A DNA stretch of 59,151 nucleotides, filler included. It is 3 parts of 3 records of this genome, joined end to end, with 100 filler letters (N's around TTAATTAATTAA, not from the genome) between each part and the next. Parts side by side here need not be neighbours in the genome. Positions count along the whole stretch, not along the records: positions 45,059 to 59,151 come from SRR31156797_3080; 2 more parts are not named here. The stretch is one strand, 5' to 3'. The translations under genes and the position numbers were made by a program. Positions 27,099-59,151 of the stretch are shown here, in pieces. Each line of letters starts with the position of its first letter. Position 1 is the first letter of the stretch. Below the pieces are notes generated by a model. The model was not told the origin of the DNA. It did not search any database and was given only the letters and a program-made list of their open reading frames with translations.

Positions 27099-27198
27099 NN
27101 NNNNNNNNNNNNNNNNNNNNNNNNNNNNNNNNNNNNNNNNNNTTAATTAATTAANNNNNNNNNNNNNNNNNNNNNNNNNNNNNNNNNNNNNNNNNNNN
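27099..27198. other. Artificial contig linker (44N-TTAATTAATTAA-44N)
   Basis: N runs around an all-frame-stop palindrome. Composition and taxonomic signals change across it. Confidence 0.97.
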
Positions 27199-40699: not shown

Positions 40700-40712
40700 G
40701 AATTATTGAAGT

Positions 40713-41951: not shown

Positions 41952-42322
41952 AACAAAAAGAACTCACCTGTATCGTGTGTCCCAATGGATGCCCGCTGGA
42001 AATCGATTTTGAAGAAGAACCATTCATCCAGGTCGTCCAAATCGAGGGGCATACCTGCGATAAGGGACCCAAGTGGGCGGAACAGGAATTGACCCGGCCC
42101 ATGAGGACCATCGCCGGCAATATCAAAGTGGAAAACGGAGATTTTCCGCTTGTGAGCGTTCGAACGGACGCGGCCATACCCAAAAACAGCATCTTTCAGG
42201 TCATGAATGAGATTCAATCCATTACCGTCAACGCCCCCGTATCCATCGGCGAGGCGCTCATCAGAAATCCCGCGGGTACGGACTGCAATATCATTGCCAC
42301 CCGCCATGTGAATCCCGCTTAG
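41948..42322 (+). CDS. DUF1667 family small metal-binding protein
   Basis: CIVCPNGC...GHTC.KG, P.RT, VSVRT..IPK, APV.IG; ATGA overlap with the upstream gene. Confidence 0.85.
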   Translation: MKQKELTCIVCPNGCPLEIDFEEEPFIQVVQIEGHTCDKGPKWAEQELTRPMRTIAGNIKVENGDFPLVSVRTDAAIPKNSIFQVMNEIQSITVNAPVSIGEALIRNPAGTDCNIIATRHVNPA

Positions 42323-42452
42323 CCCCTCACTTCCAAAGAATGTAATCGATAAGAGCGTGCGGTTGTCAGGGTGCAGAAAAATCAGCTTCAACTTTTATCC
42401 TGCCCCCTGACAACTGTCCCCTGCCCCCTTTCAGACAGATTCCTCAATTTTG

Positions 42453-42482
42453 TTGAACATCTTTCCATGGTTCTGGTATGCT
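42453..42482 (+). promoter_or_regulatory. Sigma70-like promoter for the FIST/kinase pair
   Basis: TTGAAC-N18-TATGCT with extended -10 TG. Confidence 0.45.
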
Positions 42483-42512
42483 GCCGGAAAATCGGAACAT
42501 GAGAGTGGGGGA

Positions 42513-43706: not shown

Positions 43707-43743
43707 CCCTTCGAACGCAGAACCCCCAAAGAGGTTTCCCGTC

Positions 43744-44958
43744 ATGACCGCAATGGATCATCCCGAAAAGGCGTTGGCGGTGCTTCGGTCTCAGTATGAG
43801 GAGGCCATGGGCCGCATTGAAGAACTTCGGAAAGAAAACCGGCAACTGAGCGGGCAGGTGAAACGCCTGAGCAAGACGGAGGTTGAACTTTACGGCATCC
43901 AGGGGCAATTGGATTCCCAGATGCAGTTTTATCATCAGCTCTATGAAGTGGGCAAGCGGTTCACCACCACCACCGAGTTGTCCGAAATCCTTCAGATCAC
44001 CCTTCAGTTCGTCCTCTATGAACTCAATTTCGAGCGCTGTCTCATCTTCATGCATGATGCACAGGAAAAGGTGTTCCGGGTTCAGGCCATGGACGGATAC
44101 TACGATGAAGAGAAACGTCCGGCCGTGGAAGCCCTGACCCTTCCGGAAGATGATCCCGTTCTTGTGCGGTTGCGGGATGCACCGCAACGGGTCATCTGCA
44201 CCGAAACCAGCCATGAGGAATCGTTAAAATTGCTGGGCCGCAAACTGAATATGGACGATTATGTTCTGCTGCCCCTGGGCGGAGAACCGGAAGACCCGCT
44301 GGGCCTTCTGGCGGCGGGCAATACCGCCGGCATGCGGTCATTTCAGGCCACCATTGAGGCGGAAAGCGATGCCGACGTTGGGCTTACCCGGATGGTGAGT
44401 CACACGTCCGCCGCCATCAATAGTGTGAATTTCTATCAAGCCCTGCGCGAAAACGAGCAGAAATATCGTACCCTCTTTGAAGATTCCCGGGACGCCATAT
44501 TCATCTGTGATCGCACCGGTGAAATGATGGATGCCAATCAGGCCATGCTGGACCTTTTTGGTTATACCCGATCCGAGATGATGCGGATGAACGTCTGGGA
44601 TACCAATATGGATCGGGAAGACGTGGACAGATTTGTAGGGGCCACCGACCAGACCGGATCGGTCAGGGATTTTGAGGTGAGGGTTCGAAAAAAGCATGGC
44701 GAACAAATGATCTGTCTGGTCACGGCCACATGCCGGCGGACCGATGCCGGCCATATCCTGGTTTACCAGGGGATTGTAAGGGACATCACCGAACAAAAAC
44801 GGGCGGAAGCGGATTTAAGGCAGTATCAGGCGCATCTCAAGGAATTGGTGGAGGAACGCACGGCCGAACTGGCGGAAGCAACCCGGGAGGCCCAGCAGGC
44901 CCGGGAAGCGGCCGATGACGCCAATGAAGCCAAGAGCAGCTTTCTGGCCAATATGAGC
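43744..44958 (+). CDS. GAF-PAS sensor histidine kinase (probably hybrid), truncated at the contig end
   Basis: Coiled coil, GAF, PAS (KYRTLFE...NQAMLDLFGY...RDITEQK), ANEAKSSFLANMS H-box at the break. Confidence 0.85.
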
Positions 44959-45058
44959 NNNNNNNNNNNNNNNNNNNNNNNNNNNNNNNNNNNNNNNNNN
45001 NNTTAATTAATTAANNNNNNNNNNNNNNNNNNNNNNNNNNNNNNNNNNNNNNNNNNNN
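44959..45058. other. Artificial contig linker (44N-TTAATTAATTAA-44N)
   Basis: Identical to the linker at 27099-27198. Confidence 0.97.
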
Positions 45059-45178
45059 ATCAGGATTAGCTAACAGCCCACCCCAATAATTAAGTCCACC
45101 CGCGGCAGCTTCTCGCCCAAAAAGAGTTTTGTATCTATCGTTTATGGCGCTGTCGAATTGTCCGTTGTATTCTGCCAT
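45059..45178 (-). CDS. Phage protein N-terminus with DUF4214-like motif, truncated
   Basis: Hand-translated MAEYNGQFDSAINDRYKTLFGREAAAGGLNYWGGLLANPD; AAGG RBS. Confidence 0.55.
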
Positions 45179-45189
45179 TGCTTACCTTT

Positions 45190-45672
45190 TTATTCAGGCC
45201 ATCCGGTTGTGATATCGGTTTCAAGATCCTTGCCAAGAGCCACGATCAATTCCTTCTCCCTGGTGTGGCAGGCCTGGACGTGTGCAAAGAGGGCTTTCCC
45301 GATGGAAATCATTGTTTCTGCGTCAAGTTGCACATAGCCATCAGCGCCTTTGAAATTAATGGTGGCGGTCGGGTCAAGCTGAACACCTAAAACAGCGCCA
45401 TCTATTTTTCTCTGGTCTTCTTGGTCTGTGCAGATAAATGTGCCGTCAGGGAGAGTGAAGCCGCCGAATTCTTTTTGTTGTCTGATGTTTTTGAGTTCAG
45501 CAAGCCTGGATTCTAACGTTACAGGCTCCATTGGAGTTTCCCATATGGTCCCGTTAAAGACGTCTTGTGGTGTGCTGGGTTTAAGTTCCGTAGCCTGGGG
45601 CGGGACTGTGGCGGATACCCCATGTCCGGTATATTTCCCGCCTTCATTATAATAATATACTTTTTTGTTCAT
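45190..45672 (-). CDS. Tail fibre assembly/chaperone protein (DUF4376-like)
   Basis: VPPQATELKP, R..KEFGGF, TDQEDQ..I.GA, FKGADG, HVQAC..RE; directly follows the fibre gene. Confidence 0.7.
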   Translation of the reverse strand: MNKKVYYYNEGGKYTGHGVSATVPPQATELKPSTPQDVFNGTIWETPMEPVTLESRLAELKNIRQQKEFGGFTLPDGTFICTDQEDQRKIDGAVLGVQLDPTATINFKGADGYVQLDAETMISIGKALFAHVQACHTREKELIVALGKDLETDITTGWPE

Positions 45673-45679
45673 GCCGCTC

Positions 45680-46657
45680 CTATGCCTTCATGATATACGC
45701 CAGGGCGTAATAAGGAGGTAGATTCGCATCTGTACCACTGACGCCAGTTGAAAAAATTCCCCCGTTTAATGTATGTGAGTGTGATCCGGCTGAGTCTGTC
45801 GTTGCAGTGCCAAGGGAGGTGGTGTCCCCTGATCTAACGCCATCATTTGCAGTAGAACTACCTCCGGTGATAGTATGGGTATGGGCCCCAGCCGAAACAA
45901 TAGAGAAGTTATCCCCGTGATTATGCGAGACAACAACCGCATCAGCACTTCCGCCTGTATCATCCACAGAATAAGAGTCTCCCGCACCAATAACGAAACG
46001 GTCTGTCAAATCTGGGGTCCCGTTTGATCCGTCGCACAAATACCACCCGGATGGGGTTGTTGCTATTGATCCGGACCACATTACTATAATGCCGGATGGG
46101 ATGTTTGCTGGCCCTACTTCGCCCTGCGGCCCCCGGCTACCGGAAATAGACAGTGCCCAGTCTGCAAAAGTTCCAGCGCCGCCAATATCCGTGACGTCAA
46201 CGATCAGTGTGGTCCCTGAATAGCTCGTCACCGTCCCGTGCATATAATTGGTATGATCCGCTGCGCTTACGGCTGAAACAAACTGCCCTGCCGTGAAGTT
46301 TTTTCCGGCCTGGGTGGTGAATGTTTTTGAATCTTCCTCGATCAAAAGACTGGTGGTGCTGGTAGACATCATTGCCGCTGCGTAGTTGTTCGCATCCAGG
46401 GCGCTTTGGGCTGACTCATCTGCACTTCCCGCAGCTTCATCCGCTGACCCGGATGCTTCGTTTGCTGATTCAGCGGCCGCTGATGCACTATTTCCGGCAT
46501 TGGTTTCTGCTGTTGTAATGGTATCCACATATCCATCAAGCGCAGCCTCAACAGCGTCGAATCCGGCCTCAACAGAATCCTTAAGTTCATTAATCTGGAT
46601 CGCCTTCGCCCTGGAAACCGCCGGGATATCAGCAGGTGGGGTGTAAAAATCACTCAT
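45680..46657 (-). CDS. Tail fibre protein with tail-collar domain
   Basis: Ala/Ser-rich shaft, IPSGIIVMWSG...PSGWYLCDGSNGTPDL.DRFVIGAG, H-x-H repeats, LPPYYALAYIMK. Confidence 0.85.
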   Translation of the reverse strand: MSDFYTPPADIPAVSRAKAIQINELKDSVEAGFDAVEAALDGYVDTITTAETNAGNSASAAAESANEASGSADEAAGSADESAQSALDANNYAAAMMSTSTTSLLIEEDSKTFTTQAGKNFTAGQFVSAVSAADHTNYMHGTVTSYSGTTLIVDVTDIGGAGTFADWALSISGSRGPQGEVGPANIPSGIIVMWSGSIATTPSGWYLCDGSNGTPDLTDRFVIGAGDSYSVDDTGGSADAVVVSHNHGDNFSIVSAGAHTHTITGGSSTANDGVRSGDTTSLGTATTDSAGSHSHTLNGGIFSTGVSGTDANLPPYYALAYIMKA

Positions 46658-48690
46658 CGGTTAATCCTTCTCGGGGTGTAATGCAACAACGCCCCATCAA
46701 TTTTGTGTCCGGCGTCAATGGCGCTTTTGCTGTAGACCATGAGCCCGACATTGACCCCAGTGCCTTCAAGTGGAATTGAAGGGCTTGCCACCACAGATGC
46801 GCCGTAAAAAAATTCCTCCCATTGATCGATGTCCCAATACCCGCCATCGCCTTGGATTTCTATATCGTCAGCGAAATGAGACGGGATGTTCGGGTCACTG
46901 TATGAAAAGTCCGTGGACATCCGAATCAACGAATATTGCTCGGCTGTCATTTCAATTGTGGCTTTGCGGTATGTTTTAAGCACTGACGGGGACTTGGAGT
47001 TGTTGAATTGCAACATCAAATACGCCTCGATCTCCTGTCCGTCAAAAGAAGTCCCTTTATCTGCCTGATAAACCATGCCTTCGTCTGACCCGAAAAATAC
47101 GACATCCTTTCCGGTTGAATCTTCCCCGGAGATCGCGCATGCCACATTGTCAGGGTATAAAAACTCCGTGAATGCGACGCCCTTCTTTAAAACTGTCATA
47201 CAAAGGCCGCGACCATTATCGCAAAAAATACGATACTGATTTTTGGCCTTATATGTCGCAGATGCCACAACGGTCCCTCGAATAGAGTCTATAAGCGGCT
47301 GAATATGACGGCTTACTACGCCCTGGTCAAAGTTCCCATAGGTATCCGTTGGATAGACCTTAATCAGGCCCCGGTCATCCAAACAATATGCATAGCCAAG
47401 TTTCTGGGCAGTTCTTGGGATACATCCAACTTCATCAGAAATTGAATCAAGCTCGAAGTCGTCAACCGACGTCCCAACCAGCTTATTTGTGGTGTTCCTT
47501 GAAAAAATAGCCAGGGCCTCGCCGGTCAAACTAAGGTATCCGGTTATTGTGTCCCCAAGGCCAATTTCTGCGGCACCTGATAATGCAGTCCATGAATAAG
47601 GAGTGCCAATTCCTGAATTCTGTAAAGACCCGTGAAATGAGAAAAAAAGCTGCTTTTGATGCGCGAAGACATATTCCGGGGTGTCTGTGTCCATACCGGT
47701 ATTTATTGGGATATAAACCTCACCATCAAATTCGAACCCACGGTTTACACCGTCACATCCGTAGACCCTTTTTGTGTCCGCAGTCCCTTTGAAATTATAC
47801 GCAATAGTTTCATATCGACCACCCGGCAGAATTGTGATCTGGATAGGCTCGCTTGCCGCCGTGACTTTTGTCGTAGATGCGACCTGTATTTCACCAGAGC
47901 TATTGAACGAGCCTGTTATATCATCCAAGATCAACCGGCCTGCGGCATCAGAGCCCCACGCTCCGGACTCAAGCACTGTTCTTTTTACTGTGGCTGTTGC
48001 CCCTGTGCCAACCTGGGTGATACTGACACCATCCGCAATTTCTTCTACTCCGGACTCAAAATCCATTTCAAGGTAAAGCTCGATATCCTGCCACCCAGCT
48101 GATGTGGCCTTGAATATTCTACCGGCTGTCCCGGCTGTATTGTCCCTAAACGCAAATAAAATCCCATTTAATATTGCCAGCCCACGGATCGGACCGGACC
48201 CGGTTGGCGCCTGGATGTCATCCCGGTATAAATCAGCAGCATCGCTTTTGGCTTGAGCGTGATCTTCTCCAAGGTCTTCGCCATTTTCTATGACCATGGT
48301 TATGGTTCCGGTATCAGATCCTCCGACGTTAAAGATTTCTTCTTGGAATATGCCGGACACCTTGGAAACCCTAAACCGATCGGTATCAATTGAAATTACT
48401 GTACCCTGGGCTGCGCTGTCATTACCGACAACAATGTCACCGACAGACAGTGCTCCGGTGACTGCGGCAAACAAGACACAATAACTGGCAGACGATGGAG
48501 CGGATTGCCCATCATATCTTTCGTACCCATCGATGCGACGATACCCGCCGTTGTAATTGGCCTCATAGTTCCGGCAAGAGAACAACGCGCCTGGAGATAC
48601 CGATAAAGCAGGAGACTCAAGATCAAGCCCACTCTGAAATTTGACATACTCTGTCTTGGTATCTACTTTTGCAATGCGCCGTCGCCTCAT
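46654..48690 (-). CDS. Tail nozzle / head-stabilisation protein (beta-propeller type)
   Basis: Position after the adaptor; GGYRRIDGYERYDG, beta-rich. Start MRRRRIAK overlaps the adaptor stop (ATGA). Confidence 0.65.
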   Translation of the reverse strand: MRRRRIAKVDTKTEYVKFQSGLDLESPALSVSPGALFSCRNYEANYNGGYRRIDGYERYDGQSAPSSASYCVLFAAVTGALSVGDIVVGNDSAAQGTVISIDTDRFRVSKVSGIFQEEIFNVGGSDTGTITMVIENGEDLGEDHAQAKSDAADLYRDDIQAPTGSGPIRGLAILNGILFAFRDNTAGTAGRIFKATSAGWQDIELYLEMDFESGVEEIADGVSITQVGTGATATVKRTVLESGAWGSDAAGRLILDDITGSFNSSGEIQVASTTKVTAASEPIQITILPGGRYETIAYNFKGTADTKRVYGCDGVNRGFEFDGEVYIPINTGMDTDTPEYVFAHQKQLFFSFHGSLQNSGIGTPYSWTALSGAAEIGLGDTITGYLSLTGEALAIFSRNTTNKLVGTSVDDFELDSISDEVGCIPRTAQKLGYAYCLDDRGLIKVYPTDTYGNFDQGVVSRHIQPLIDSIRGTVVASATYKAKNQYRIFCDNGRGLCMTVLKKGVAFTEFLYPDNVACAISGEDSTGKDVVFFGSDEGMVYQADKGTSFDGQEIEAYLMLQFNNSKSPSVLKTYRKATIEMTAEQYSLIRMSTDFSYSDPNIPSHFADDIEIQGDGGYWDIDQWEEFFYGASVVASPSIPLEGTGVNVGLMVYSKSAIDAGHKIDGALLHYTPRRINR

Positions 48691-49364
48691 GCCAGTGGTC
48701 CCCCCCATGTTATTTCAGGCATTCTATCAAGTTCTAAAGCACCGAGCAGGCGATGGTATTCATTCTGCCCATGGGTATATTTTTCGTTTGCGGCATCATA
48801 GGCACCATAAAAGGTCAGCGCCCGCCATACAGCAATCATGTGATATTCGGATGGATATAGCGGCTCGTCGGTGTTTCCAGTCAGTGATTTTGCTTTCCGG
48901 AAGTATTCGCCTGCAATATTGTATTCCGCATCCGGAATGGGATATAAAGCCATGGACTTATCGGGCTTAATTGCAAAAAACTGCGGTCGGCCGGAAATAG
49001 CCCGAGAAGCCCCATTTAGATAAGTTCGCTTGAATTCTCTCCATGATAATGGAACCATAAACTGCTCATCGCTGTATTCAATCCGACATGAAACCTGGTC
49101 GTAGTCGTTAGTCTTCCATTTATTCAAGTCGGAGACGCCGGCATCAGTAGGCGTATATACCTGCTGACTGATCGTTGTCGTGAAATCAAATTCACGAACG
49201 AGGAACTCCCAGTCAGAATGAAGATTTTGCACGTCCTCATCGGCCGACCGAACCCAGTCCACAACCTTTTTTTGCATGCCGGTTTGATTAAGGACAGAAG
49301 CCGGGCCAGTTCCGGACAACCCGGCCTCGCTCCTTAACCTTTGACACATCGAAAGAAAATTCAT
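48687..49364 (-). CDS. Head-tail adaptor protein
   Basis: MNFLSMCQRLR, W.FL, GRPQ, LYPIPD.EY, P.EYH..IVWRAL pattern; position after the head genes. Confidence 0.7.
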   Translation of the reverse strand: MNFLSMCQRLRSEAGLSGTGPASVLNQTGMQKKVVDWVRSADEDVQNLHSDWEFLVREFDFTTTISQQVYTPTDAGVSDLNKWKTNDYDQVSCRIEYSDEQFMVPLSWREFKRTYLNGASRAISGRPQFFAIKPDKSMALYPIPDAEYNIAGEYFRKAKSLTGNTDEPLYPSEYHMIAVWRALTFYGAYDAANEKYTHGQNEYHRLLGALELDRMPEITWGGPLA

Positions 49365-49816
49365 TACAGTGATGCCGTGATAGATTCCAGCCAGGCAAAC
49401 CCGTTTGGATGCGGGTCCTTAATCACCGTAAACGGATATTTAGGGACAGTGTGTTCAACCATCTGAATTTTATCCGGCTGAGAAGGGTCTTTTATCTGCT
49501 GTTCGTACCGCGTATCAGTACACCTGGCCAGGGCTTCAACGTACTTTCTTTTTATAGTGGTTTGCCTTCCCCTTACAACCGGTTGATTGATTCCGTTTAC
49601 ATTTGGGGTAATAACCGGCAAATCTTCTTTATTCGTAGAAGGGGACACGATTATGGTGACCGGCATATTCATAAAAGCCTCCATCTCGGCGGCATCGACA
49701 AAATCATTTTCGGTTACCTGTTCCAGGCCCGTGGCAGTGCCTATCTCTCCAATACTAAAATCATCTTTTTTGGGGACGCTGCTCTCATCAACGTCTACTT
49801 TTTTTCTTGTAGCCAT
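49364..49816 (-). CDS. Phage hypothetical protein (head/tail junction region)
   Basis: GGAG RBS; EAFMN.PV.I, VNG...RG....KRKYVEALAR, YPF.VI.DP.P.G..WL. Confidence 0.6.
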   Translation of the reverse strand: MATRKKVDVDESSVPKKDDFSIGEIGTATGLEQVTENDFVDAAEMEAFMNMPVTIIVSPSTNKEDLPVITPNVNGINQPVVRGRQTTIKRKYVEALARCTDTRYEQQIKDPSQPDKIQMVEHTVPKYPFTVIKDPHPNGFAWLESITASL

Positions 49817-49825
49817 CTATTCTCC

Positions 49826-49850
49826 AAAAAGGAGGGGCCGAAACCCCTCC
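49826..49850 (-). terminator. Intrinsic terminator closing the head-gene block
   Basis: Minus strand GGAGGGGT-TTCG-GCCCCTCC-TTTTT. Confidence 0.8.
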
Positions 49851-49856
49851 AGTTCT

Positions 49857-50312
49857 TTACGTTAAGGGTTGGGGCGGTATTGCGAACAGATCATAAAATG
49901 TTGCCGTAATGCTCGTGGCGTCAAGAAGCGTTGTGCCACCTGTGAACACAGAGGCGGATGCATTCTTGACCTTGATCGCTCCAATAGGGCAGGTGTTTGC
50001 CGTCGGTTCGGGCCAAGGGATAACGGCGTTTCCTGCCGTTAGGTCGTCATTGCTAACTTCATCACTCTTAACAACGGTGATTGTCCCCGCAGCATTAACA
50101 ACAACAAGGAACAGCGCTGTATAGGCTGCGGAGACGGTGTTTCCGTCAAGCTTAACGTCGCCATCCCCGCTGGTGAGTGTGTATGACAATCCATCTATGG
50201 CATACGGGAAGTCGGCAAGGGTCTCCGCATCGGCTTTGCCAGAGGCATCAATCCCGAGACCTGCACAACCAAGGCAAATTGTCCCGCCTCTTGGGTTATC
50301 ATTGAGGTTCAT
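49857..50312 (-). CDS. Putative capsid decoration/cement protein
   Basis: Small beta-rich Ala/Thr/Gly protein after the MCP and before the terminator; AAGGA RBS. Confidence 0.55.
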   Translation of the reverse strand: MNLNDNPRGGTICLGCAGLGIDASGKADAETLADFPYAIDGLSYTLTSGDGDVKLDGNTVSAAYTALFLVVVNAAGTITVVKSDEVSNDDLTAGNAVIPWPEPTANTCPIGAIKVKNASASVFTGGTTLLDATSITATFYDLFAIPPQPLT

Positions 50313-50323
50313 TTAAAAAATCC

Positions 50324-50530
50324 TTATGGATTAAGAGTTAAATCGTCGGCCACTTCATAGTCGGTATCCGTGACGCCTGTGTCAGCATTAAGCTGAGTTG
50401 CCATATTATCAACAGCATCCTTGATTGCGGCCAGGTCCGTGTATATGGCGTCCAGTAATGGTCGGATCTCTTTAACATCCGCCTTATTACTCATGGCCTG
50501 CAATCTGTTTTTAATGCTTGTATTAGCCAT
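50324..50530 (-). CDS. Small virion-associated protein (head fibre-like)
   Basis: AAGGA RBS; helical DLAAIK...QLNADTGVTDTDY; directly follows the MCP. Confidence 0.6.
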   Translation of the reverse strand: MANTSIKNRLQAMSNKADVKEIRPLLDAIYTDLAAIKDAVDNMATQLNADTGVTDTDYEVADDLTLNP

Positions 50531-50569
50531 TTTTATCCTTTTTGGGCGGAGGTGGCCCCCCGCCTCAAG

Positions 50570-51637
50570 TTAATTGGACACGTCAGTCGCGCAGGTCTCG
50601 ATACGAGTCATCCAGTTTTCATTCAAGCGGACAGGGGCATACCAGAAATCAGCGCCGACATACCCGAACATGCCGGATGGGTTGGCGTGGTTGATTTGAC
50701 TCGTGGGAACGAGTCGCGGGGTAATGCCCGTCTTGGCCGCATTTTTTGTTCCCGGGATTCGTTCCCCCTTAAGACTGACATGGCCCCAGGCGTCTTCAGC
50801 AATGATAATTGCAGGATAAACGTCACAATTTACACTGCCCGCACTCACCATCCCGGTACCGGTTACCGATGCGCCGGCAGCCAGAAACGGACGGAATAAC
50901 GGCGATGTTACAAACCGGAATTCTTCACATGCCCCAATTTCCCGGGAGTGAACGGCTTTGATTGCCGTTCCGTATTCTACGCGCTTGGTAAAACCAGGAA
51001 GATCACGGACATCTGAACTTAAGTCCGTGTGAATAAAAACCACATAGGCAGGTTCGACGGCAGAAGTACCGAAGGCTGCACCGGGAGAGATGTGGCTGGT
51101 CACATGCATTCCACGGTTATTTTCCATGGCCCGGGCGGCTGCCCTGAGATTATTAAGGGAGATTGTGTTGTTGACTCCAGCCCTGGTGCTACCATTGGCA
51201 TAAATAACACTGGACCCTGCTTTCACTGCACCATACGAAACGAGTTCCGCAACTTCACCCAGGGTTTCCCCTGTCAATTTCTGCATGTCACCAGGGATAT
51301 CATCCTCATACATCAATTCCGACTTGGATGAGTATTTAAAGAGGATGGCGTATTGCTCCAGCGTGACTGACACGTCGGTGTAATCAATCGTGTTTGCCGT
51401 AGGAGTGGTGCCCTCGGCGGTGACAAAGTTTGTAGGGTCAATATTTGCGACTTCGTTGGAGTCCGCATTAAACGGTTTAAGTCGTCGAAAAACAACGGTG
51501 TCTGTTTTCCGTTTGGGGTGTTTTTTCTGTACACCGAACCCACCAAGTACCATCACGGGTTCAGCGTGTTTCAACATCTCACCTTCGGCGCGGATTAAAT
51601 TCCGCGAAGGGACTGTTGAATAATTCTGCATTGGCAT
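50570..51637 (-). CDS. Major capsid protein (N4-gp56-like, HK97 fold)
   Basis: TVVFRR, EG.TP...I...DVSVTLEQY, YVVFIH.D...DVR.LPGF..VE.YG, EIG.CE.FRFV.SP, NPSG.FGYVG, LNENWM.RIE. Confidence 0.88.
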   Translation of the reverse strand: MPMQNYSTVPSRNLIRAEGEMLKHAEPVMVLGGFGVQKKHPKRKTDTVVFRRLKPFNADSNEVANIDPTNFVTAEGTTPTANTIDYTDVSVTLEQYAILFKYSSKSELMYEDDIPGDMQKLTGETLGEVAELVSYGAVKAGSSVIYANGSTRAGVNNTISLNNLRAAARAMENNRGMHVTSHISPGAAFGTSAVEPAYVVFIHTDLSSDVRDLPGFTKRVEYGTAIKAVHSREIGACEEFRFVTSPLFRPFLAAGASVTGTGMVSAGSVNCDVYPAIIIAEDAWGHVSLKGERIPGTKNAAKTGITPRLVPTSQINHANPSGMFGYVGADFWYAPVRLNENWMTRIETCATDVSN

Positions 51638-51655
51638 TTTTATACCTTCCTGGGG

Positions 51656-52579
51656 CTACCCCCATATTTTTCCAAATTCAAGCTCCCTGATTTCATCTTC
51701 AGACATGTCCGCTTCTGATTTCTGGGGCGTTTGCCGCTTCCCGCCTGATATTTTGGTTTCAGCTTGTTCCAGGCGTTTTTTACGGGCGGCGGCAATTGCT
51801 TGTGGCGATTTCTTGTTTGATTGAAACTCTCCGAACCGGTCAAGGACGAAGACTGCATCATCTGCGGTCTTCCCCAAAAAATGTTTGTCTCGAATTTCTT
51901 TGGGTTGTTCTTTTAACCAGGATTGATATTCTTCGGTTCCCACAGTTGTTTTCCAATCCGGATACTTGAACGACAGCAACCGCCCTTCAAGGATATCGCT
52001 GGAAATAAACTCACCCTGCTTTTCACGGATATCGTTTAATCCGCTTCGAAGGTCAGAAACATCGGGCAGCTTTTTTGACAGCTCGGCGCTCGTTGCGGCA
52101 AGCTTGTTCTCTATTGCATCCGCCCATTCGGGGTATTCTTCCTTAAGATCTTCCCAAGCCCCTGCATTTTTGGCTGCGTCAGCCATTTCCTTTTCGGTCG
52201 GTGCGGTCTGTTTTTCTTCCGCAGCGGCCTGCCTGGCTGCATGGAATTCATTTTGTATGGAACCAATCCTGCGCTCGGTCTGTTTCAATCTTTCTTCAAT
52301 GGCACCCAGGGTGTTAAGTCTGCTTGAAATCCCATCGATAGTTTCTCTCAGGGCGGGAGGTATCCCGGCCATTGGGTCTTCTATTTCTGGTTCTTGTTCT
52401 TCGTCGACTTCTTCCGAATGTCCCGGGTTTTGCCCTGACTTGTCGTCTGGGTCTACAATCTCGTTGTCAAGCTCTGCGGCGGGTCCCGGCGCATCACCAT
52501 CAAACACTTCTGCAAACACCTCTTCCCTTAGAGACTGTTCCTCGTCACTCATCTCAGGGCTATTGTCTTCATCTTCCAT
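51656..52579 (-). CDS. Capsid scaffolding protein
   Basis: Acidic N-terminus, coiled coil, LKEEYPEW, PDW...V...YQ.WL..QP; immediately upstream of the MCP. Start at MEDEDN after an AAGGA RBS. Confidence 0.75.
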   Translation of the reverse strand: MEDEDNSPEMSDEEQSLREEVFAEVFDGDAPGPAAELDNEIVDPDDKSGQNPGHSEEVDEEQEPEIEDPMAGIPPALRETIDGISSRLNTLGAIEERLKQTERRIGSIQNEFHAARQAAAEEKQTAPTEKEMADAAKNAGAWEDLKEEYPEWADAIENKLAATSAELSKKLPDVSDLRSGLNDIREKQGEFISSDILEGRLLSFKYPDWKTTVGTEEYQSWLKEQPKEIRDKHFLGKTADDAVFVLDRFGEFQSNKKSPQAIAAARKKRLEQAETKISGGKRQTPQKSEADMSEDEIRELEFGKIWG

Positions 52580-52650
52580 ATTCTTTTCCTTAAACCGGCT
52601 TATGGCGGTTGATCTTGAGGCGGTTGCCCGGCTCTGTTTTTTTTTGGGAG

Positions 52651-52763
52651 TTGGAGCATAAAAAAAGGGAAGACAAATACGATGGTTTACGGCACCGTAA
52701 CTGCCTTCCCTTTTTAAATTTTGCATTATCGTTTGGCCTGGCCGGGCCTCAGATAAGCTCCAA
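52651..52763 (-). promoter_or_regulatory. Structured intergenic element (terminator-like with alternative pairings) upstream of scaffold/MCP
   Basis: TTGGAGC/GCTCCAA outer stem; AAAAAGGGAAGGCAG/TTGTCTTCCCTTTTT inner stem followed by a U run. Confidence 0.5.
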
Positions 52764-52768
52764 GTTTT

Positions 52769-53068
52769 CTATATATTTAGGAGTCCACTACCTCCGGTTT
52801 GTTTTTCCTCGGCCTCTGGTAGCGCAAGGATCTTTTTTAAAAACCTAATTTCTGCACGATAGACCGTTGTTTGCTGCTCGGACGCCTTAAGACTGTCGTT
52901 CTTCTTTCTCAACGTCTCGATTTCTTTTTTTGCCCATGTCTCGATAAAAACCCATGTAGCAGATGTTGGCTCGATTTTACCGACCGATGGCACAGGGCCA
53001 GCAACAACGAATTCCCTTTGGGATTTTTCCCGTCTCCGGAATAATTTTTTAATTAGAGCGAGCACCAT
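52769..53068 (-). CDS. Phage head-module hypothetical protein (helical)
   Basis: SATW..IE.WA..EI..LR..ND...T..YRAEIR.LK.ILAL pattern, as often seen in small genes between portal and scaffold. Confidence 0.6.
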   Translation of the reverse strand: MVLALIKKLFRRREKSQREFVVAGPVPSVGKIEPTSATWVFIETWAKKEIETLRKKNDSLKASEQQTTVYRAEIRFLKKILALPEAEEKQTGGSGLLNI

Positions 53069-53291
53069 TGAACTCCATGAGCCATTCGTCTTTTCCGATC
53101 TCTACCCAACGTTCGTGCAGGTCTGCTGCATCAGCAGTGATACAGCTTATTGCGTGCCCGGTGTGGTCTGTTTCTTCCACAACGAGCATTGTGTCCCATT
53201 TATAAGTTTTGACCTCATCTAGGACAGCAATACACCTGCCGTTTTCGTGTTTATAGAACTTGTCTTTTTCGAGCTTTAGAGGCATTCGCAA
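53049..53291 (-). CDS. Phage hypothetical protein
   Basis: Co-oriented and overlapping both neighbours; start could be MPLKLEK (53285). Confidence 0.55.
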   Translation of the reverse strand: MRMPLKLEKDKFYKHENGRCIAVLDEVKTYKWDTMLVVEETDHTGHAISCITADAADLHERWVEIGKDEWLMEFNGARSN

Positions 53292-53479
53292 TCCTTTCTT
53301 GCAGGAAAAACAGTTGCACGGAACGGTTTCAGTCGCCTAAATGTGACCACTTCCCCATTCGGAATTGTTTTGTTGGTTTTTGATGTCTTGGGCTCGCAAG
53401 GTTTAATAAAAAAATCATGGCAGGCTCTTCCCAGATGTGCCCAACATTCTCTTTCGATAGATTCTATCGTCTTACTCAT
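53276..53479 (-). CDS. Small Cys-rich protein sharing the capsid motif FRRLKPFxA (candidate mini-capsid paralogue)
   Basis: AGGGG RBS; residues 47-55 FRRLKPFRA versus MCP 50-58 FRRLKPFNA; upstream L.RA...K..EP also shared. Confidence 0.6.
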   Translation of the reverse strand: MSKTIESIERECWAHLGRACHDFFIKPCEPKTSKTNKTIPNGEVVTFRRLKPFRATVFPARKDCECL

Positions 53480-53482
53480 TGC

Positions 53483-53539
53483 TCAACCCCTATTCATGGG
53501 CCGTGCTTCAATCATTTTTGTTCCGATATATCTTTTCAA
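53483..53539 (-). pseudogene. 18-codon ORF MKRYIGTKMIEARPMNRG, probable gene remnant or leader peptide
   Basis: Perfect AGGAGG RBS 5 nt before TTG; stops at TGA, 3 nt before and in frame with the 67-aa ORF. Confidence 0.5.
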
Positions 53540-53549
53540 AATTTCCTCC

Positions 53550-53846
53550 TTATGATGAATGAGCCCCGCTAAGCATATATTGTCGATAAACACAGCTTTC
53601 TGTCATATTCGGAATACTTTTGACCGGGGCACTTGCATATGCAAACAAGCCGTTTGATGTGGCTTCAAATTTTGTTATAAAAATACCTGCTGTAGCCATC
53701 CATGAGACAAAGTCAGTAATTGGGTCATGGTATATTTGATCACGCCACTCACAATCGATCTTGCCGCTTGCATTTTTAATCCTTGCACCAACACGCCTTC
53801 TCTCTGTGCAGAAAAACACTTGTATTTTTGCGGATTCTTCACTCAT
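53550..53846 (-). CDS. Phage hypothetical protein
   Basis: ATGA overlap with the portal stop; co-oriented. Confidence 0.55.
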   Translation of the reverse strand: MSEESAKIQVFFCTERRRVGARIKNASGKIDCEWRDQIYHDPITDFVSWMATAGIFITKFEATSNGLFAYASAPVKSIPNMTESCVYRQYMLSGAHSS

Positions 53847-56092
53847 GCTTGGTAAGCCATTCCTTCAGGCGCCCGACCTTCAGGTTCAACAACCGGAGTA
53901 GCCACTTGTGGCCCCTTCCGGTCAGGCCCAGCCATAGTCACCTGCGTTTTAAGTTTCATTGCATCCCGGGAAAGCTCAGACTTAATCTTTTCCAGGGAAA
54001 TTCCCTTCGTATTTGCCAGCTCCATCATTTTGATGTTTTGGTCCATCTCCTTCATGGCCCGCTCGTGCTGCCGTTGACGCTCCTGTTCCTGAGCATCAAA
54101 ATTTAATTTTTCCACGGCAGCCTGTTGTGTAAGCTGAGCCTTTTTCAACTCCGTATCGCTTCGAATCTTGGCCGCCATCAATGTAGGATCTTGCGGGGCA
54201 GATGCCGCTTTCTTCCGCTGTTCCTTCGCCGCGTTAAAATCCTCTTCGGTCTTGGCAATATCCAACCGCAAAGAGGAGAGAACCTGGTCAACAGCCTTGT
54301 CCCAATCCACCTTGAGATTAAAATCCGGATCTTGCTTCATGGCCATAACCTGCATCAGGGTTCTGGCCTGCTGGTCTTTTTCATAAAGAACCGACGTTCC
54401 CCGGGCGTCAACGCTGAAGTCCCCCTTGATCTCAGGGTCGTCATTGTATTGCATGTTCCAGTCATAATACCGGGTCAGGTGAGGTTTTGTGATACAATCG
54501 TCAAATAGCTTTACCCTGGATCTGAGGGCGATATTCGCAGAATCCACCATGATGTTTGTGGCGCCCAAAGTTTCTGGGGCCTCGGATTTTTCTCCCTGGA
54601 ACAACATGGGCATGGCGGTTTCCATATCCACAAACTTAAGGGCTATATCAATGATGGCTTGGAGTTGGGCTTGGTTGTTCCCGATCTGGAATTGTGCAAA
54701 AGCCTTGCGGACATCGTCCTCGGCAATATCATCTGAATCCAGCATCTTCCATATTTTTTTACCCGTGATTTCCCACTTGCCATCTGCCGGCTTCAACCGA
54801 TTAGATAAAACAATATTGGCCCCGGAAGAATCACCGGCATTGTCCATCATAGCCCGCCAAGCAGCGGTAATGATCCGCTGCAACCAGAAAAGAATCCTTG
54901 GGACACCTATCCCCCAGGGAGAACCTGCAACTGTCGTCCATGGAAAAAAATCATAAGGCAACTCGCCAGTGTCCAAGACATTGAGCATCACCTTTATGGG
55001 GACCTCATTTACAAACACCACGCAAGCCGAGAAAGACTGGGTAACATCATCGTGGGAAATATCAACATCAAGGGCTTCAAGATCTTCTCGGTCGAGATCC
55101 CCGTAATACTCCCACTTTTCAAAGAGGTTCCCGCTGCCTGCTGTGGATTGCAGAACTCTATGGCGACTTTCCTTGTCGTTATAACCAACTCTCGTCCTAA
55201 CCGGTTCCTGCCTGAGAATTTCCTTTATCTGGTCCTCAAAATACCCATCAACACCGACAAGGTCCCGTAGTTCCCTGGGAAGGATCATGTCTCTTTCCCA
55301 AATGTACGAAGCCCGACGAATATCCTCTCCGCAGTCAGGGTCAGGATAAACATTCCAACAAGAAACGTCTTTTGACGCAGGGGATTTTTCTTCGATCACG
55401 GCCAGAGCAAAAACACCGTCACCCTGATCCTGCCACTTTTTATGTACCCTTTTTACAACATTCGGGCCTTTTAAGATGCCAGTCCCAAGCCTGACACCTC
55501 CCCGAACAACCTTTCGATTTTCTGCATTGTATCCGCACTCAACGAGCTGATCCTCAACAACATTTTCCATGCCGCTCATCTTTTTACGGATACCGTCCAA
55601 GTCCTTTTTTGCGACATCGGAGATCGTGCTTTGTGACCCATCTTCATTGATAACAGGGTGACCCATGACTGCTGCAGGTGTTTTGTTCTGCATAGCTTCC
55701 TGGATCATCGGATCAGGAGTAATGTCCAGGCCCCAATTTTTATCATCTGTGGGAAACATGATTTCTGAAAATCGGCCTTCTGCCACCTCGCACTTGCCCC
55801 GGATAATATTTACGATCACTTTTGACCGCTTCGGACCTTTTTCCTTAACCGGCGCAGTGCCTGTTGCATAGTCAATCATTGACGTGCCACCAGGGCTATC
55901 CGGATCGATACCGTCAAAGAGGGCTTCATCCTCACGCCATCTGCGCTCGACGCCTGAAGCTGCCCGAAAAGCAACAGCCTCATCCCTTTTTTGAAGCAGT
56001 GCGCTTGCCAGCTTAAGCAAAACTTCGCGTTCCCCTTGACCTTCCTGCGAGTCAGCTTCAAGCCCTTCTGTTTGTCCGGTATATTCGTCCAT
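53843..56092 (-). CDS. Portal (head-tail connector) protein
   Basis: Follows TerL; GTGILKGP, WNVYPDP, PWGIGVP, AAWRAMMDN, ETLGATNI, IKGDF.VDARG; Gln-rich coiled-coil barrel. Confidence 0.85.
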   Translation of the reverse strand: MDEYTGQTEGLEADSQEGQGEREVLLKLASALLQKRDEAVAFRAASGVERRWREDEALFDGIDPDSPGGTSMIDYATGTAPVKEKGPKRSKVIVNIIRGKCEVAEGRFSEIMFPTDDKNWGLDITPDPMIQEAMQNKTPAAVMGHPVINEDGSQSTISDVAKKDLDGIRKKMSGMENVVEDQLVECGYNAENRKVVRGGVRLGTGILKGPNVVKRVHKKWQDQGDGVFALAVIEEKSPASKDVSCWNVYPDPDCGEDIRRASYIWERDMILPRELRDLVGVDGYFEDQIKEILRQEPVRTRVGYNDKESRHRVLQSTAGSGNLFEKWEYYGDLDREDLEALDVDISHDDVTQSFSACVVFVNEVPIKVMLNVLDTGELPYDFFPWTTVAGSPWGIGVPRILFWLQRIITAAWRAMMDNAGDSSGANIVLSNRLKPADGKWEITGKKIWKMLDSDDIAEDDVRKAFAQFQIGNNQAQLQAIIDIALKFVDMETAMPMLFQGEKSEAPETLGATNIMVDSANIALRSRVKLFDDCITKPHLTRYYDWNMQYNDDPEIKGDFSVDARGTSVLYEKDQQARTLMQVMAMKQDPDFNLKVDWDKAVDQVLSSLRLDIAKTEEDFNAAKEQRKKAASAPQDPTLMAAKIRSDTELKKAQLTQQAAVEKLNFDAQEQERQRQHERAMKEMDQNIKMMELANTKGISLEKIKSELSRDAMKLKTQVTMAGPDRKGPQVATPVVEPEGRAPEGMAYQA

Positions 56093-57378
56093 TAATATCC
56101 CACCACTGAATCCATTGCGCTGTAGCCTACGTGCATGACTTGCTGCTGCCTGATCTCATCGTTTTTCATCCTGTCTGCGTTCACCGATATGTATCTGATA
56201 TTGTCTGCTCCATGGGAATATTCATCATGAACCGGGGACCCGGGTTCGCTTGTCTGTTTATTGATGTGTCTGCGGTATCTCTTGATGCATTCCACCAGGC
56301 GCTTACAATTTGTTTCGTCAATAGCCATTCTGCCCATGGCCATGCGAGTGACTTTAATACCCTCCTCAACCCCGAGTTCAACAATTTGTTCTCGCTTCGG
56401 GACTTTCCAACCAAGCTTTCTGAGAATTTGAGCCGTTGTTTTTCCGGTTTTAAAATCTCCGGCGTATCCATCATGGGGAAGCCAGACCTTTCCCCAATTT
56501 AGGTTCATTTTCTTCAACTCGGCGCTGTACCAGTCCAGGGTTTTGTGTGACTCTTCGATATATTTAATGATCCTAATTTCTGAAATATGCCGCTGAACAA
56601 TGGATATGGACATAGAGTCGTTCCAGCCCAGGTCAAAAACGACATGTGCTTTAAGCATGGGATCATATGGAACCCGGCAAATGCGCTGTTCGGACTCCAT
56701 CTTTTCTACTTCATCGTGATAGATAGCCCCGGCGACTGCTGGCCGGCACTTACCCTCCCAGATATTCGGGTATCCTTTTGGGTCAGTTTTCTTACAATGC
56801 AACCTTTCTTTTTCCATCACATCATTGAACCATGGATTATCAATATAGTTCATGGTTACAACAACGGCATCCTCCGGCTGATTAATTACAAACCGAACGT
56901 GTGTAGGATCAGTCTCAAGTTCCGGGTTATACGATACCCAAACTTCTGAATTCTCTTTTCTGATTGTCGGGAGTAAAATTTCCCAGGATCGGTTAGAAAT
57001 AACCTGCCCTTCCTCCACCCACACAATATCAACACCCTCAAATGATTTTATGGATTCGTTTGTTTGGTCTGAGAGCCCAGAGAAAAAGATACCAGTGCCG
57101 TTACTGCCTCTTATTTCAGTCGCAAGAACGGTGTATTTGGCCCCAAGCCCAAGAAGCTGGATTTGATCCTTAAGCAGCTTATGAACAGAATCCTTAATTG
57201 ACTTCTGGACTTCCCTGGTGCAAAGAATCCGGATGGGTTTCATCGCCCCCAAAATCAATAGAGCCCGAGCGAACCCCCACGACTTTCCAGACCCCCTACC
57301 ACCCTTGGCAACTTTGTACCGGGCTGGCTGGAACAGAAAATCTAATTTTTCGGGAAATTGAACTTTGGGTTTTGCCAT
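56092..57378 (-). CDS. Terminase large subunit (PBSX/XtmB family)
   Basis: GGRGSGKS Walker A, REVQKSIKDS, WVEEGQ Walker B, PTIRK..SE, DNPW, FDLGWND, HD.YSHGAD..RY. Confidence 0.95.
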   Translation of the reverse strand: MAKPKVQFPEKLDFLFQPARYKVAKGGRGSGKSWGFARALLILGAMKPIRILCTREVQKSIKDSVHKLLKDQIQLLGLGAKYTVLATEIRGSNGTGIFFSGLSDQTNESIKSFEGVDIVWVEEGQVISNRSWEILLPTIRKENSEVWVSYNPELETDPTHVRFVINQPEDAVVVTMNYIDNPWFNDVMEKERLHCKKTDPKGYPNIWEGKCRPAVAGAIYHDEVEKMESEQRICRVPYDPMLKAHVVFDLGWNDSMSISIVQRHISEIRIIKYIEESHKTLDWYSAELKKMNLNWGKVWLPHDGYAGDFKTGKTTAQILRKLGWKVPKREQIVELGVEEGIKVTRMAMGRMAIDETNCKRLVECIKRYRRHINKQTSEPGSPVHDEYSHGADNIRYISVNADRMKNDEIRQQQVMHVGYSAMDSVVGY

Positions 57379-57382
57379 CTAC

Positions 57383-57964
57383 TTACGCCTTAATAAACTC
57401 TATTTGTATACCGTCAACGTCGTCTGCAGCGGATGATTCGTCTAAATTATACGCCTCACGCTCCAAAGCGATTCTCTGCGCCCGGACCTGAGACAATGCC
57501 TTTAAGGTCTCAGCTTTTTCCTTCACGGTGAGACTCAGCTTGGTTTCCGTAACATCCCCTTGATAACTCGACACATGTACTTTTTGGGGGTCTCCGCCTA
57601 AATCCTCGAGCAGCTTGTCCTCATGAGTAATGAGTGCCGCGATCTCTTTCCGGTGCCGCAAAACCACATTACTGCCGGTCTCTGCAGCATGGTGAACAAC
57701 CTCCTCATCGGACATGTTCGCGTGCGCACCACCACTGCGCACTAAGTTCTCGCGCACCCGGTTTTTTACCCGGTCGGCCAGGTTCTTTTTCCAACCCTTG
57801 ATTCTTGCCTGCTTGCGGATAACCGCCTCAGATATCGACGTTTTCCACGTTTCCGAATCTTTGTGCACCTCACCATACTGGGCCGCAATTTCATAATTTG
57901 AGAGCGCACCAACCCGGTATAACGGCTCGATATAATCCCAGTTTATGAGTTTGCGGCCTGCCAT
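57383..57964 (-). CDS. Terminase small subunit
   Basis: INWDYIE..YR.G.LS..EIA...ISEAVIRK.A...GW HTH pattern; LEREAYNLD; directly upstream of TerL. Start at MAGRKL. Confidence 0.75.
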   Translation of the reverse strand: MAGRKLINWDYIEPLYRVGALSNYEIAAQYGEVHKDSETWKTSISEAVIRKQARIKGWKKNLADRVKNRVRENLVRSGGAHANMSDEEVVHHAAETGSNVVLRHRKEIAALITHEDKLLEDLGGDPQKVHVSSYQGDVTETKLSLTVKEKAETLKALSQVRAQRIALEREAYNLDESSAADDVDGIQIEFIKA

Positions 57965-57968
57965 ATGA

Positions 57969-58367
57969 TTATTTTTCCGGACCCTTACACTCAGCAGGTT
58001 TTTCCCACCAATTTTTAAACTCAGACTTTCCGTTATCATCAAGGGGAGGCATTCTGGTTCGCAGGCCATTCCACACGGAAAACGATAATTTTTCCCGTCC
58101 ACCATCTGGATATCGCAGATAAACCCCCCGGGTTTTTGCACTAAGGGAAAACACGTAACGCTCAATCACCGCATCAACCCACACGCCCGTTGCGCCGTTC
58201 ATGATTTGCACGACATCTTCCGTGTACGGATTCCCGTCGATATCAAATTTCCGAAGGCGGTAAAGATTGTAAGCCGTTAATATTTTCCCAATTTCTTTTT
58301 TAAAAAACGCGATGGTGGCAGGGATCATTACTACAGCAAACACCCAGTTGTTTAATATTTCATTCAT
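57969..58367 (-). CDS. Phage membrane-anchored hypothetical protein
   Basis: N-terminal TM segment (WVFAVVMIPATIAFF); co-oriented. Confidence 0.55.
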   Translation of the reverse strand: MNEILNNWVFAVVMIPATIAFFKKEIGKILTAYNLYRLRKFDIDGNPYTEDVVQIMNGATGVWVDAVIERYVFSLSAKTRGVYLRYPDGGREKLSFSVWNGLRTRMPPLDDNGKSEFKNWWEKPAECKGPEK

Positions 58368-58434
58368 GATTCTTCTCTCATTCTATATAGATAAAAAAGG
58401 GGTAACAGCACGGCCAGGAGACAAAACCGTTTCA

Positions 58435-58647
58435 TCACTGCGCCCCCGTAAACAATCGTTTAAAAAAGCTTTTCTTTGGTTCGCGCACCCGGCCGGCCGA
58501 CTTAGCCCGCTGGATTATCCGGGCAAGCTGAGCCTCTGTGATATATCCGTCCATCTCCACACCGTTTTTATTGATCACCGTTACCGGTACGTGCGGTGGA
58601 TATCCCTCTGTGTGGATTGTTTCTGATAGGTAGATTTTGTTTTTCAC
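58435..58647 (-). CDS. Phage hypothetical protein
   Basis: GTG start overlapping the upstream stop; GAGGGG RBS. Confidence 0.5.
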   Translation of the reverse strand: MKNKIYLSETIHTEGYPPHVPVTVINKNGVEMDGYITEAQLARIIQRAKSAGRVREPKKSFFKRLFTGAQ

Positions 58648-59009
58648 TGCTCTATCCCCTCTTTTTTACCCATAAGCCTCTCGTCATGACGGGTTAAAAT
58701 ATCTTGGTGCCGTTCAGTCCGGGCATACAACTCTTTGATGTGGTTCGATGTGCCGGTTTTATCCGCAAAGCGATCAGCCAGTGTCTCCCGGCAGGACGTC
58801 TGCCTGGATAAATACTCTTTTTGATTGTTAAGGATGTCGGCCAGCATCTTTTTACCGAGCCATGACACAATCGTTAGGAGTACGGTGATAACGCCAAACC
58901 CGATAGTGATGAGAACAGCCTCAGGGGTCCAAGGAGTAGAAGCCCCGGGTGCCTGCACCTGCGCCTGGGGGATAGTGGCAATAAGAGAAGCGAAGGCAAT
59001 CAATAACAT
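58644..59009 (-). CDS. Phage membrane protein (holin-like or lysis-region), start uncertain
   Basis: TM segment VLITIGFGVITVLLTIVSWL followed by a coiled coil; located upstream of TerS. Confidence 0.45.
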   Translation of the reverse strand: MLLIAFASLIATIPQAQVQAPGASTPWTPEAVLITIGFGVITVLLTIVSWLGKKMLADILNNQKEYLSRQTSCRETLADRFADKTGTSNHIKELYARTERHQDILTRHDERLMGKKEGIEQ

Positions 59010-59151
59010 ACTGCAACCAAGTCAAAAGATTTAGGCACCCGGGGAAAATAAGTCATCTCATCAATCCTTAAAAGGTCATCATGCTTTGCGTATGGAGCCG
59101 CGTACAATTAACGTTTATATGATACACCCGATTTTAGGCCTCCACGGAAAA

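Follow-up and report, generated by a model that had tools for sequence, protein, structure and literature searches.

In bacteriophage SPP1 the scaffold binds the N-terminal helix of the major capsid protein (MCP), the extended N-terminal arm (N-arm) of which lies under the extended loop (E-loop) of a neighbouring subunit (PMC6813328). In 80alpha it is the C-terminal helix-and-hook of the scaffold that binds, chiefly to the MCP N-arm (PMC5644958), and in N4 and DEV the virion retains the 46-residue N-arm (residues 1-46), which extends to the adjacent MCP (PMC11768535, PMC11445570). The addressing of accessory proteins to proheads and the policing of N-arm contacts are understood in only a few model phages. 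The subject of the present analysis is orf67, a 67-residue open reading frame (ORF) in the head operon of a partial phage genome, which carries a short block matching the N-terminal region of the MCP encoded on the same contig. It was analysed within a stretch of DNA of 59,151 nucleotides (the window), along which positions are counted unless a related locus is named. As judged by sequence comparison, orf67 is probably a real mimic of a strand of the capsid protein.

The comparison rests on four features of the window.

53276..53479, minus strand: orf67, 67 residues with an ATG start, pI 9.2, five Cys and two His residues.
53309..53353, minus strand: the MCP-like block of orf67, residues 43-57 (EVVTFRRLKPFRATV), delimited by BLASTP, hhalign and profile hidden Markov model (HMM) searches.
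50570..51637, minus strand: the MCP, 355 residues, with an HK97 fold of the N4-gp56 type (phrog_1357, E 1.6e-45).
51470..51490, minus strand: FRRLKPF of the MCP, residues 50-56, overlapping strand 48-53 at the E-loop base (AlphaFold2 model and conservation).

A first-pass annotation, made from the letters alone, had pointed to the ORF at 53276-53479 and to its FRRLKPF match with the MCP, and both are borne out: the frame is open, begins with ATG and encodes 67 residues, of which 47-53 (53321-53341) are exactly FRRLKPF. The region of orf67 that matches is VVTFRRLKPFRA and its MCP counterpart is TVVFRRLKPFNA, in which the codon of Phe50 begins at 51490; BLASTP gives 9/13 identities (E 2e-4 for this single comparison). 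The seven codons in common show differences at 4/21 nucleotide positions, all of them synonymous (AGG/CGA, CTG/CTT, TTC/TTT), and the next Ala codon is GCA in orf67 and GCG in the MCP gene. Outside the motif, blastn-short found no DNA similarity between orf67 and the MCP gene, in agreement with the earlier view that the likeness lies at the protein level and is not that of a recent DNA copy. The probability that four random substitutions in the motif would all be synonymous is 0.0025, a value that is biased by ascertainment because the motif was noticed only for being identical.

The shared block falls on a well defined part of the capsid protein. The AlphaFold2 model of the MCP (pLDDT 82.9) has an N-arm helix at residues 12-25, a strand at 48-53 that opens the E-loop, paired elements at 86-103 and a spine helix at 116-139, so that the proposed assignment of the motif to the E-loop region is plausible. 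The best Foldseek matches of the model are the capsid proteins of N4, of the Shigella phages B2 and Moo19 and of the Pseudomonas phage DEV (for N4, 9lbz, E 3e-20 and a TM-score of about 0.6), and the sequence matches in the PDB are 9e99 and 9d7z. In 37 MCPs, Asp46, Arg52 and Pro55 are invariant and Thr45, Thr47, Val49, Phe50 and Arg51 are nearly so, which makes the FRRLKPF block the best conserved one in the N-terminal region of the MCP.

Within orf67 the resemblance is confined to this block. The alignment of orf67 with the MCP profile by hhalign covers 15 columns only (MCP residues 46-60, E 2.8e-4, probability 41%). When orf67 was shuffled 3000 times, a single shuffle scored as high as the real ungapped match to the MCP (Gumbel p 2.5e-4). 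Across the whole window, 306 six-frame ORFs of at least 50 residues share five 7-mers free of X, whereas 100 shuffles gave 2.0 on average and 6 at most; a shared 7-mer is therefore unremarkable window-wide, and the window alone does not exclude chance.

The match becomes credible because relatives of this phage carry arm copies in the same slot, and its statistical weight comes from them rather than from the window. A profile of the first ~70 residues of 59 related MCPs was searched against the small frames of the related loci, in all 1426 frames from 49 distinct complete portal-to-MCP intervals (derived from 59 loci including the window). It matched an ORF of 112 residues in loci L029 and L025 (E 1.2e-5), an ORF of 126 residues in locus L003 (E 1.7e-4) and orf67 (E 0.0042), and at the same threshold it gave 0 matches in the 1426 reversed frames and the 14,260 frames of ten shuffles that served as controls. 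These proteins, here termed type-2 copies, share a block of the form D/N-T-x-x-FRR-x-x-PF (MCP residues 46-56), which in orf67 reads EVVTFRRLKPF. The 112-residue ORF stands directly after the portal gene and contains NTIKFRRLKPF, the motif of which differs in its DNA from that of its own MCP gene at 3/21 nucleotides, all synonymous; upstream of the motif it has KMLLKKSDPRMVFQSFGG, resembling KMLKHAEPIQVLTKFG of the MCP. The 126-residue ORF of L003 contains DTITFRRPYPF together with MEKELLLQARPMMILSSSG.

For these two longer proteins the likeness extends well beyond the motif. With hhalign the 112-residue protein aligns with MCP residues 21-60 (E 2.4e-5) and the 126-residue protein with residues 4-60 (E 2.2e-5), both alignments containing a 27- or 28-residue insertion, and when the parts preceding the motif were compared alone with the MCP arm the observed scores were reached by 3/2000 (L029) and 0/2000 (L003) shuffles. 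Both are accordingly taken as true arm copies that have kept long frames (112 and 126 codons) despite heavy divergence. A homologue of the L003 protein (P0003) is 87% identical, with 16 aligned differences and a seven-residue insertion; none of the changes falls in the motif block (residues 76-96) and eight fall in the linker at 49-66. The search for homologues of the L029 protein found only the protein itself. The AlphaFold2 model of the L003 protein, made from a three-sequence alignment, is unusable (pLDDT 41).

The genomic setting of orf67 was compared with that of its closest relative, locus L001, the MCP and portal protein of which are 90% and 84% identical to those of the window and which has homologues of the two genes that follow orf67, here called orf80 and orf99.

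53843..56092, minus strand: portal protein (phrog_332, phrog_1216).
53483..53539, minus strand: remnant ORF of 18 codons with a TTG start 5 nt after AAGGAGG, encoding LKRYIGTKMIEARPMNRG, then a stop.
53049..53285, minus strand: orf80-family gene, conserved in 16 of the first 73 loci.
3598-4092 of L001, plus strand: Tad2-like gene of 164 residues between the portal gene and orf80 (PF11195, E 8.5e-24, 84.3 bits).

orf67 comes after the portal gene and before the orf80-family gene, and it shares its strand with the genes for the portal, scaffold-like and major capsid proteins. In the DNA alignment of the window with L001, homology takes in the ribosome-binding site and some 17 codons at the start of the Tad2-like gene, then breaks off and resumes only at the ATG of orf80; together with phmmer and Pfam this alignment identifies the 18-codon ORF as the leftover 5' end of that gene. 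The body of orf67 has no DNA similarity to the Tad2-like gene of L001, and its protein gives no Pfam match and thus has no Tad2-like (PF11195) domain. The remnant ORF closes with a TGA, and 3 nt later, without a change of frame, comes the ATG of orf67; the strongest Shine-Dalgarno sequence of the region belongs to the remnant ORF, and the conserved orf80 begins with an ATG at 53285 that the stop of orf67 overlaps (ATGCCTCTAA). The body of orf67 is a replacement cassette, well placed for coupled translation. A promoter and terminator scan around orf67 gave nothing above chance (five promoter-like sites, 2.7 expected).

The protein itself is basic overall (13 Lys and Arg, eight Asp and Glu) and is without a polybasic tail; its N-terminus, MSKTIESIE, does not resemble an MCP start, and its C-terminal tail is TVFPARKDCECL. 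No family was assigned by Pfam (E <= 0.01) or PHROG searches, and a look-up in the ESM Atlas stayed below the mark for recognition, the nearest clusters being uninformative hypothetical proteins. In single-sequence complex models the fold of orf67 is uncertain (pLDDT < 50).

Our tentative reading of these observations is that orf67, although young, is a genuine accessory gene of the late operon for head assembly, the product of which uses its copied strand to occupy the contact site of that strand in head assembly. The strand in question, DT-x-V-FRRL-x-PF, is the one that comes first at the E-loop base, and it would seat the small basic protein where the MCP strand is otherwise contacted. By analogy with other phages, candidate sites are a neighbouring capsid subunit (the N-arm under the E-loop) and the acidic scaffold, and orf67, if translated, may by binding one of these partners ride into, or tune, procapsid assembly. 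The scaffold-like protein considered here is the following.

51656..52726, minus strand: scaffold-like protein (longest ORF, 356 residues), with a likely start at ATG 52579 by comparison with L001.

The label 'scaffold' would follow from position and composition, the protein having no Pfam or PHROG family match. Its conserved C-terminus is acidic (K-S-E-x-D-M-S/T-x-x-E-L/Y-R) and MCP residues 37-56 carry eight Lys or Arg residues, so that charge complementarity may exist between this C-terminus and both the basic MCP segment and orf67. A complex prediction of the MCP, the scaffold-like protein (residues 120-356) and orf67 scored 0.00 in both runs; it was made without alignments or controls, and is neither support nor counter-evidence.

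Several observations weigh against this proposal. The first concerns the extent of the resemblance, which by BLASTP, hhalign and profile score is limited to 13-15 residues of orf67. The first-pass annotation had seen further parallels, between HLGRACHDFFIKPCEP and NLIRAEGEMLKHAEP and between KTIPNG and KKHPKR, and these did not hold up: a profile of MCP residues 1-45 gives residues 1-42 of orf67 a score of -2.2 bits, which 1053/2000 shuffles also attain, and orf67 therefore lacks the collinear similarity to MCP residues ~10-36 that characterizes the type-2 copies upstream of the motif. Compared with the L029 and L003 proteins outside the motif, orf67 gave local scores that were reached by 1344, 855, 1595 and 388 of 2000 shuffles, and since there is no likeness outside the motif it may not share an origin with them. 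Type-2 copies are moreover rare, being present in 4/49 distinct intervals and representing three proteins; 80 further metagenome loci yielded the L029 and L003 proteins again and no new kind, 24 genome loci yielded none, and the profiles found no arm copies in the portal-to-MCP interval of two cultured or deposited distant relatives, the Pseudoalteromonas phage vB_Pun_Y3 and MW202426.

The second concerns the distribution of the gene. The earlier annotation had itself made intact homologues elsewhere an expectation of its proposal, and none was recovered from any collection searched: 0 of 1.84 billion cluster representatives matched at E <= 1e-3, a set of 5.8 billion proteins held no candidate, 25 pattern matches in IMG/VR and 494 in JGI metagenome contigs left 0 confirmed, and no homologue was present in GenBank phages. 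The DNA of orf67 was seen only in its probable source sample, on one contig of 14,093 nt that shows no differences, and no RNA data set is listed as containing the stretch. L001 has the Tad2-like gene in the slot and no orf67, which implies that orf67 is not essential and is dispensable for assembly in this lineage. A tblastn match of orf67 residues 12-29 in locus L070 (7919-7972, E 0.19) was set aside as chance, since it is off-frame inside a repetitive gene of 710 residues.

An alternative that draws on much of the same evidence is that the 190-nt body of orf67 is recombination debris, such as an old partial duplication of the 5' region of an MCP gene or a fragment of a foreign one, which has stayed open by chance and is not made in useful amounts. 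The slot is clearly rearranged, with homology to L001 breaking off after the leftover of the Tad2-like gene, and the stop that closes that leftover lies in the frame of orf67; orf67 is wholly an orphan, of uncertain fold, the type-2 copies are sporadic, and a 67-codon frame would be open in about 4% of random frames by our estimate, which makes its openness weak coding evidence. Debris of this kind should have lost the motif as well, since the flanks have decayed beyond recognition and neutral decay would be expected to erase the seven identical residues too; instead, the four differences are synonymous, with the ascertainment bias given above. In addition, the start and the stop of orf67 are neatly coupled to the neighbouring genes, and the genes of L003 and L029 keep frames of 126 and 112 codons, with a block that is invariant in the homologue of the former. 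We consider a dead remnant somewhat unlikely on balance.

Capsid proteins are known triggers of bacterial defences, as with CapRel and with Lit and its Gol peptide. orf67 could accordingly present a capsid epitope to a host immune sensor, which would be titrated without being triggered, or it could poison the capsids of competing related phages. The slot behaves as a fast-turnover accessory region, with portal-to-MCP intervals of 1121 to 5847 nt across the 49 distinct phages. Each of the three type-2 proteins is an orphan or near-orphan confined to its lineage, as expected of arms-race genes, and the segment of the MCP arm that is copied is, besides, the one that could be targeted by a sensor of conserved capsid features. 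The Tad2-like gene in the slot of L001 is of the anti-Thoeris type, and its 5' remnant still precedes orf67; this circumstantial link is the sole evidence for an anti-defence role. A free trigger epitope could, on the other hand, equally activate the sensor, no phage-encoded capsid decoy is described in the literature searched, and orf67 is part of the late structural operon, where promoter and terminator signals for this gene alone do not exceed chance. The phage piece is also a separate contig, and hence comes without defence-gene context. Interference or decoy function appears unlikely. Least probable of all, and very unlikely in our estimation, is that an unrelated small ORF merely happens to contain the capsid 7-mer: the match was found by scanning the whole window, where shuffles yield up to six shared 7-mers, and has no similarity around it, but it coincides with the best conserved block of the MCP arm, the ORF belongs to the head operon and shares its strand, and relatives carry arm copies with the same block in this slot; neither the profile search (0 matches in 15,686 control frames) nor the pairwise shuffles (p ~3e-4) would lead one to expect it.

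The interface mimicry that we tentatively favour for orf67 can be set beside a second and more frequent kind of capsid copy in the same clade. These type-1 copies are ORFs of 33-58 residues, the first 13 residues of which (M-A-x-Q-x-Y-G-T-x-P-x-R-N) copy the MCP start and are followed by a Pro/Lys/Arg-rich tail. They occur in 12/49 distinct intervals, where they either follow the portal gene immediately or stand between the genes for scaffold and MCP, and a type-1 profile detected further partial loci. The copies located are as follows, in the coordinates of each locus.

L009 4083-4184, L010 3617-3727, L012 3754-3867 and L015 4444-4566: type-1 ORFs.
L029 2701-2805, L026 809-985, L033 4071-4226 and L043 5861-6004: type-1 ORFs.
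L045-47, L051, L053, L068, L079, L082, L086, L087 and L103: further type-1 loci.

The DNA of the type-1 start differs from that of the MCP start at synonymous sites. The variable residue between Gln and Tyr agrees between the type-1 copy and its own MCP in 7/14 distinct pairs, a count in which relatedness is not controlled and from which no conclusion is drawn. No type-1 ORF was found in the window by regular expression (M-x-x-Q-x-Y-x-T-x-P-x-R-N) or HMM scans. The design recurs in T4, where gp61.1 (NP_049649.1, 54 residues, annotated 'hypothetical protein') aligns over residues 2-38 with residues 57-93 of gp23 (46% identity, E 6e-9) and continues into a Lys-rich tail. Residue 65 of gp23 is, we presume, the protease cut site.

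Considered alongside these proteins, orf67 would be a minimal and uncertain member of a recurrent, undescribed phage habit of making small copies of the own capsid arm. A wider generalization, which we regard as doubtful, is that N-arm copies form an undescribed and recurrently evolving class in which capsid interface peptides serve as address labels or decoys; orf67, with FRRLKPF mounted on an unrelated Cys-rich basic body, would then be its minimal member, acting either as a docked passenger or regulator of the procapsid or as a decoy of a capsid-sensing defence in an anti-defence slot. Were this so, a new class of players in head assembly or anti-defence would be present among 'hypothetical' mini-ORFs, and a simple sequence rule would follow, namely to match small ORFs to the N-terminal end of the phage's own MCP, which is testable in T4 through gene 61.1. 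The value of orf67 in this context is that of one more, unusually minimal instance, which shows the part of the arm that is kept when the rest is free to change.

The remaining genes of the head module that were identified in the window are listed below.

56092-57378, minus strand: terminase large subunit (PF04466).
53550..53846, minus strand: orf98, an orphan directly after the portal gene, with no homologue in the related loci (best E 0.18-0.4).
52769..53068, minus strand: orf99-family gene, a small conserved head-module gene with 47 tblastn matches in the first 73 loci, of which several can give more than one.

No prohead protease gene was evident between the portal and MCP genes from ORF calls, Pfam or PHROG. 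The orf80-family protein has a C-terminal zinc-ribbon-like extension in L029 (3041-3481; DUF2175, E 1.2e-5) and in L003 (4110-4445), which is absent from the orf80 of the window. In L089 (10181-10744), L126 (197-556) and L219 (4518-4934) the MCP frame already closes 119-187 codons after its start, possibly because of a frameshift, an intervening sequence or a fault of assembly. Distant MCP relatives (35-38% identity) are present in L216, a 706 kb scaffold of Vibrio litoralis DSM 17657, and in L215, a 1.99 Mb contig of a Roseovarius metagenome-assembled genome; since both are embedded in large contigs of bacteria, part of the wider group is probably temperate and resident in a cultured host.

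The window itself is composite. Pairs of 44-N runs, 12 bases apart, at 27099-27198 and 44959-45058 divide it into pieces of 43%, 53% and 48% GC, the first two of which are bacterial and encode, among others, ribosomal protein S1, ABC ATPases, a PLD-like protein with a type-IX (Por) secretion sorting domain, UDP-glucose dehydrogenase and FIST. The phage piece (45059-59151) is a separate contig of 14,093 nt, a partial phage genome that was binned with bacterial contigs. A prophage was considered, given that the first 45 kb are bacterial, but with the phage piece on a contig of its own integration is not supported. No tRNA was found in 40000-59151.

No equivalent of orf67 was found in the main texts of the literature searched, and several described systems resemble it in part. 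The parallel with SaPI1 CpmB and the 80alpha scaffold (PMC5644958) is that a small protein with a copied head-assembly interface peptide engages the partner of the protein that it imitates, with the N-arm involved. The two differ in what is copied: CpmB reproduces the C-terminal helix-and-hook of the scaffold and binds the MCP, whereas orf67 copies the MCP and so would be expected to bind the partner of the MCP strand; CpmB is also a satellite protein, and orf67 a phage gene. The comparison of orf67 with the 356-residue scaffold-like protein gave a BLASTP E value of 0.10 for a match that is not at the C-terminus, and hence no sign of CpmB-like scaffold mimicry. The capsid targeting sequence of T4 (IPI-III and Alt) is a short shared peptide that brings unrelated small proteins into the prohead, an address function like that proposed for orf67; the T4 tag, however, is an N-terminal leader that is cut by the prohead protease and is not a capsid copy, whereas the block of orf67 is internal. 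Proteins of the Ccm type, encoded by phage-inducible chromosomal islands (PICIs), are full-length HK97-fold capsid paralogues of satellites that redirect capsid size and intervene in capsid assembly of the helper. They are capsid-derived, as is the block of orf67, but orf67 has only 67 residues, 13-15 of them capsid-like. With the Tad2-like proteins (PF11195) orf67 has its position in common, the slot being the same in L001 and the remnant of the first 17 codons of that gene preceding orf67. T4 gp61.1 is, like orf67, a free-standing small protein that copies part of the MCP of its own phage at the protein level, and its design is that of the type-1 mini-ORFs. It differs from orf67 in that gp61.1 and the type-1 proteins copy the extreme (mature) N-terminus and bear a polybasic tail, whereas orf67, which has no such tail, copies the base of the E-loop some 45 residues further in, and in that gene 61.1 lies among early and middle genes beside the primase gene rather than in the head operon.

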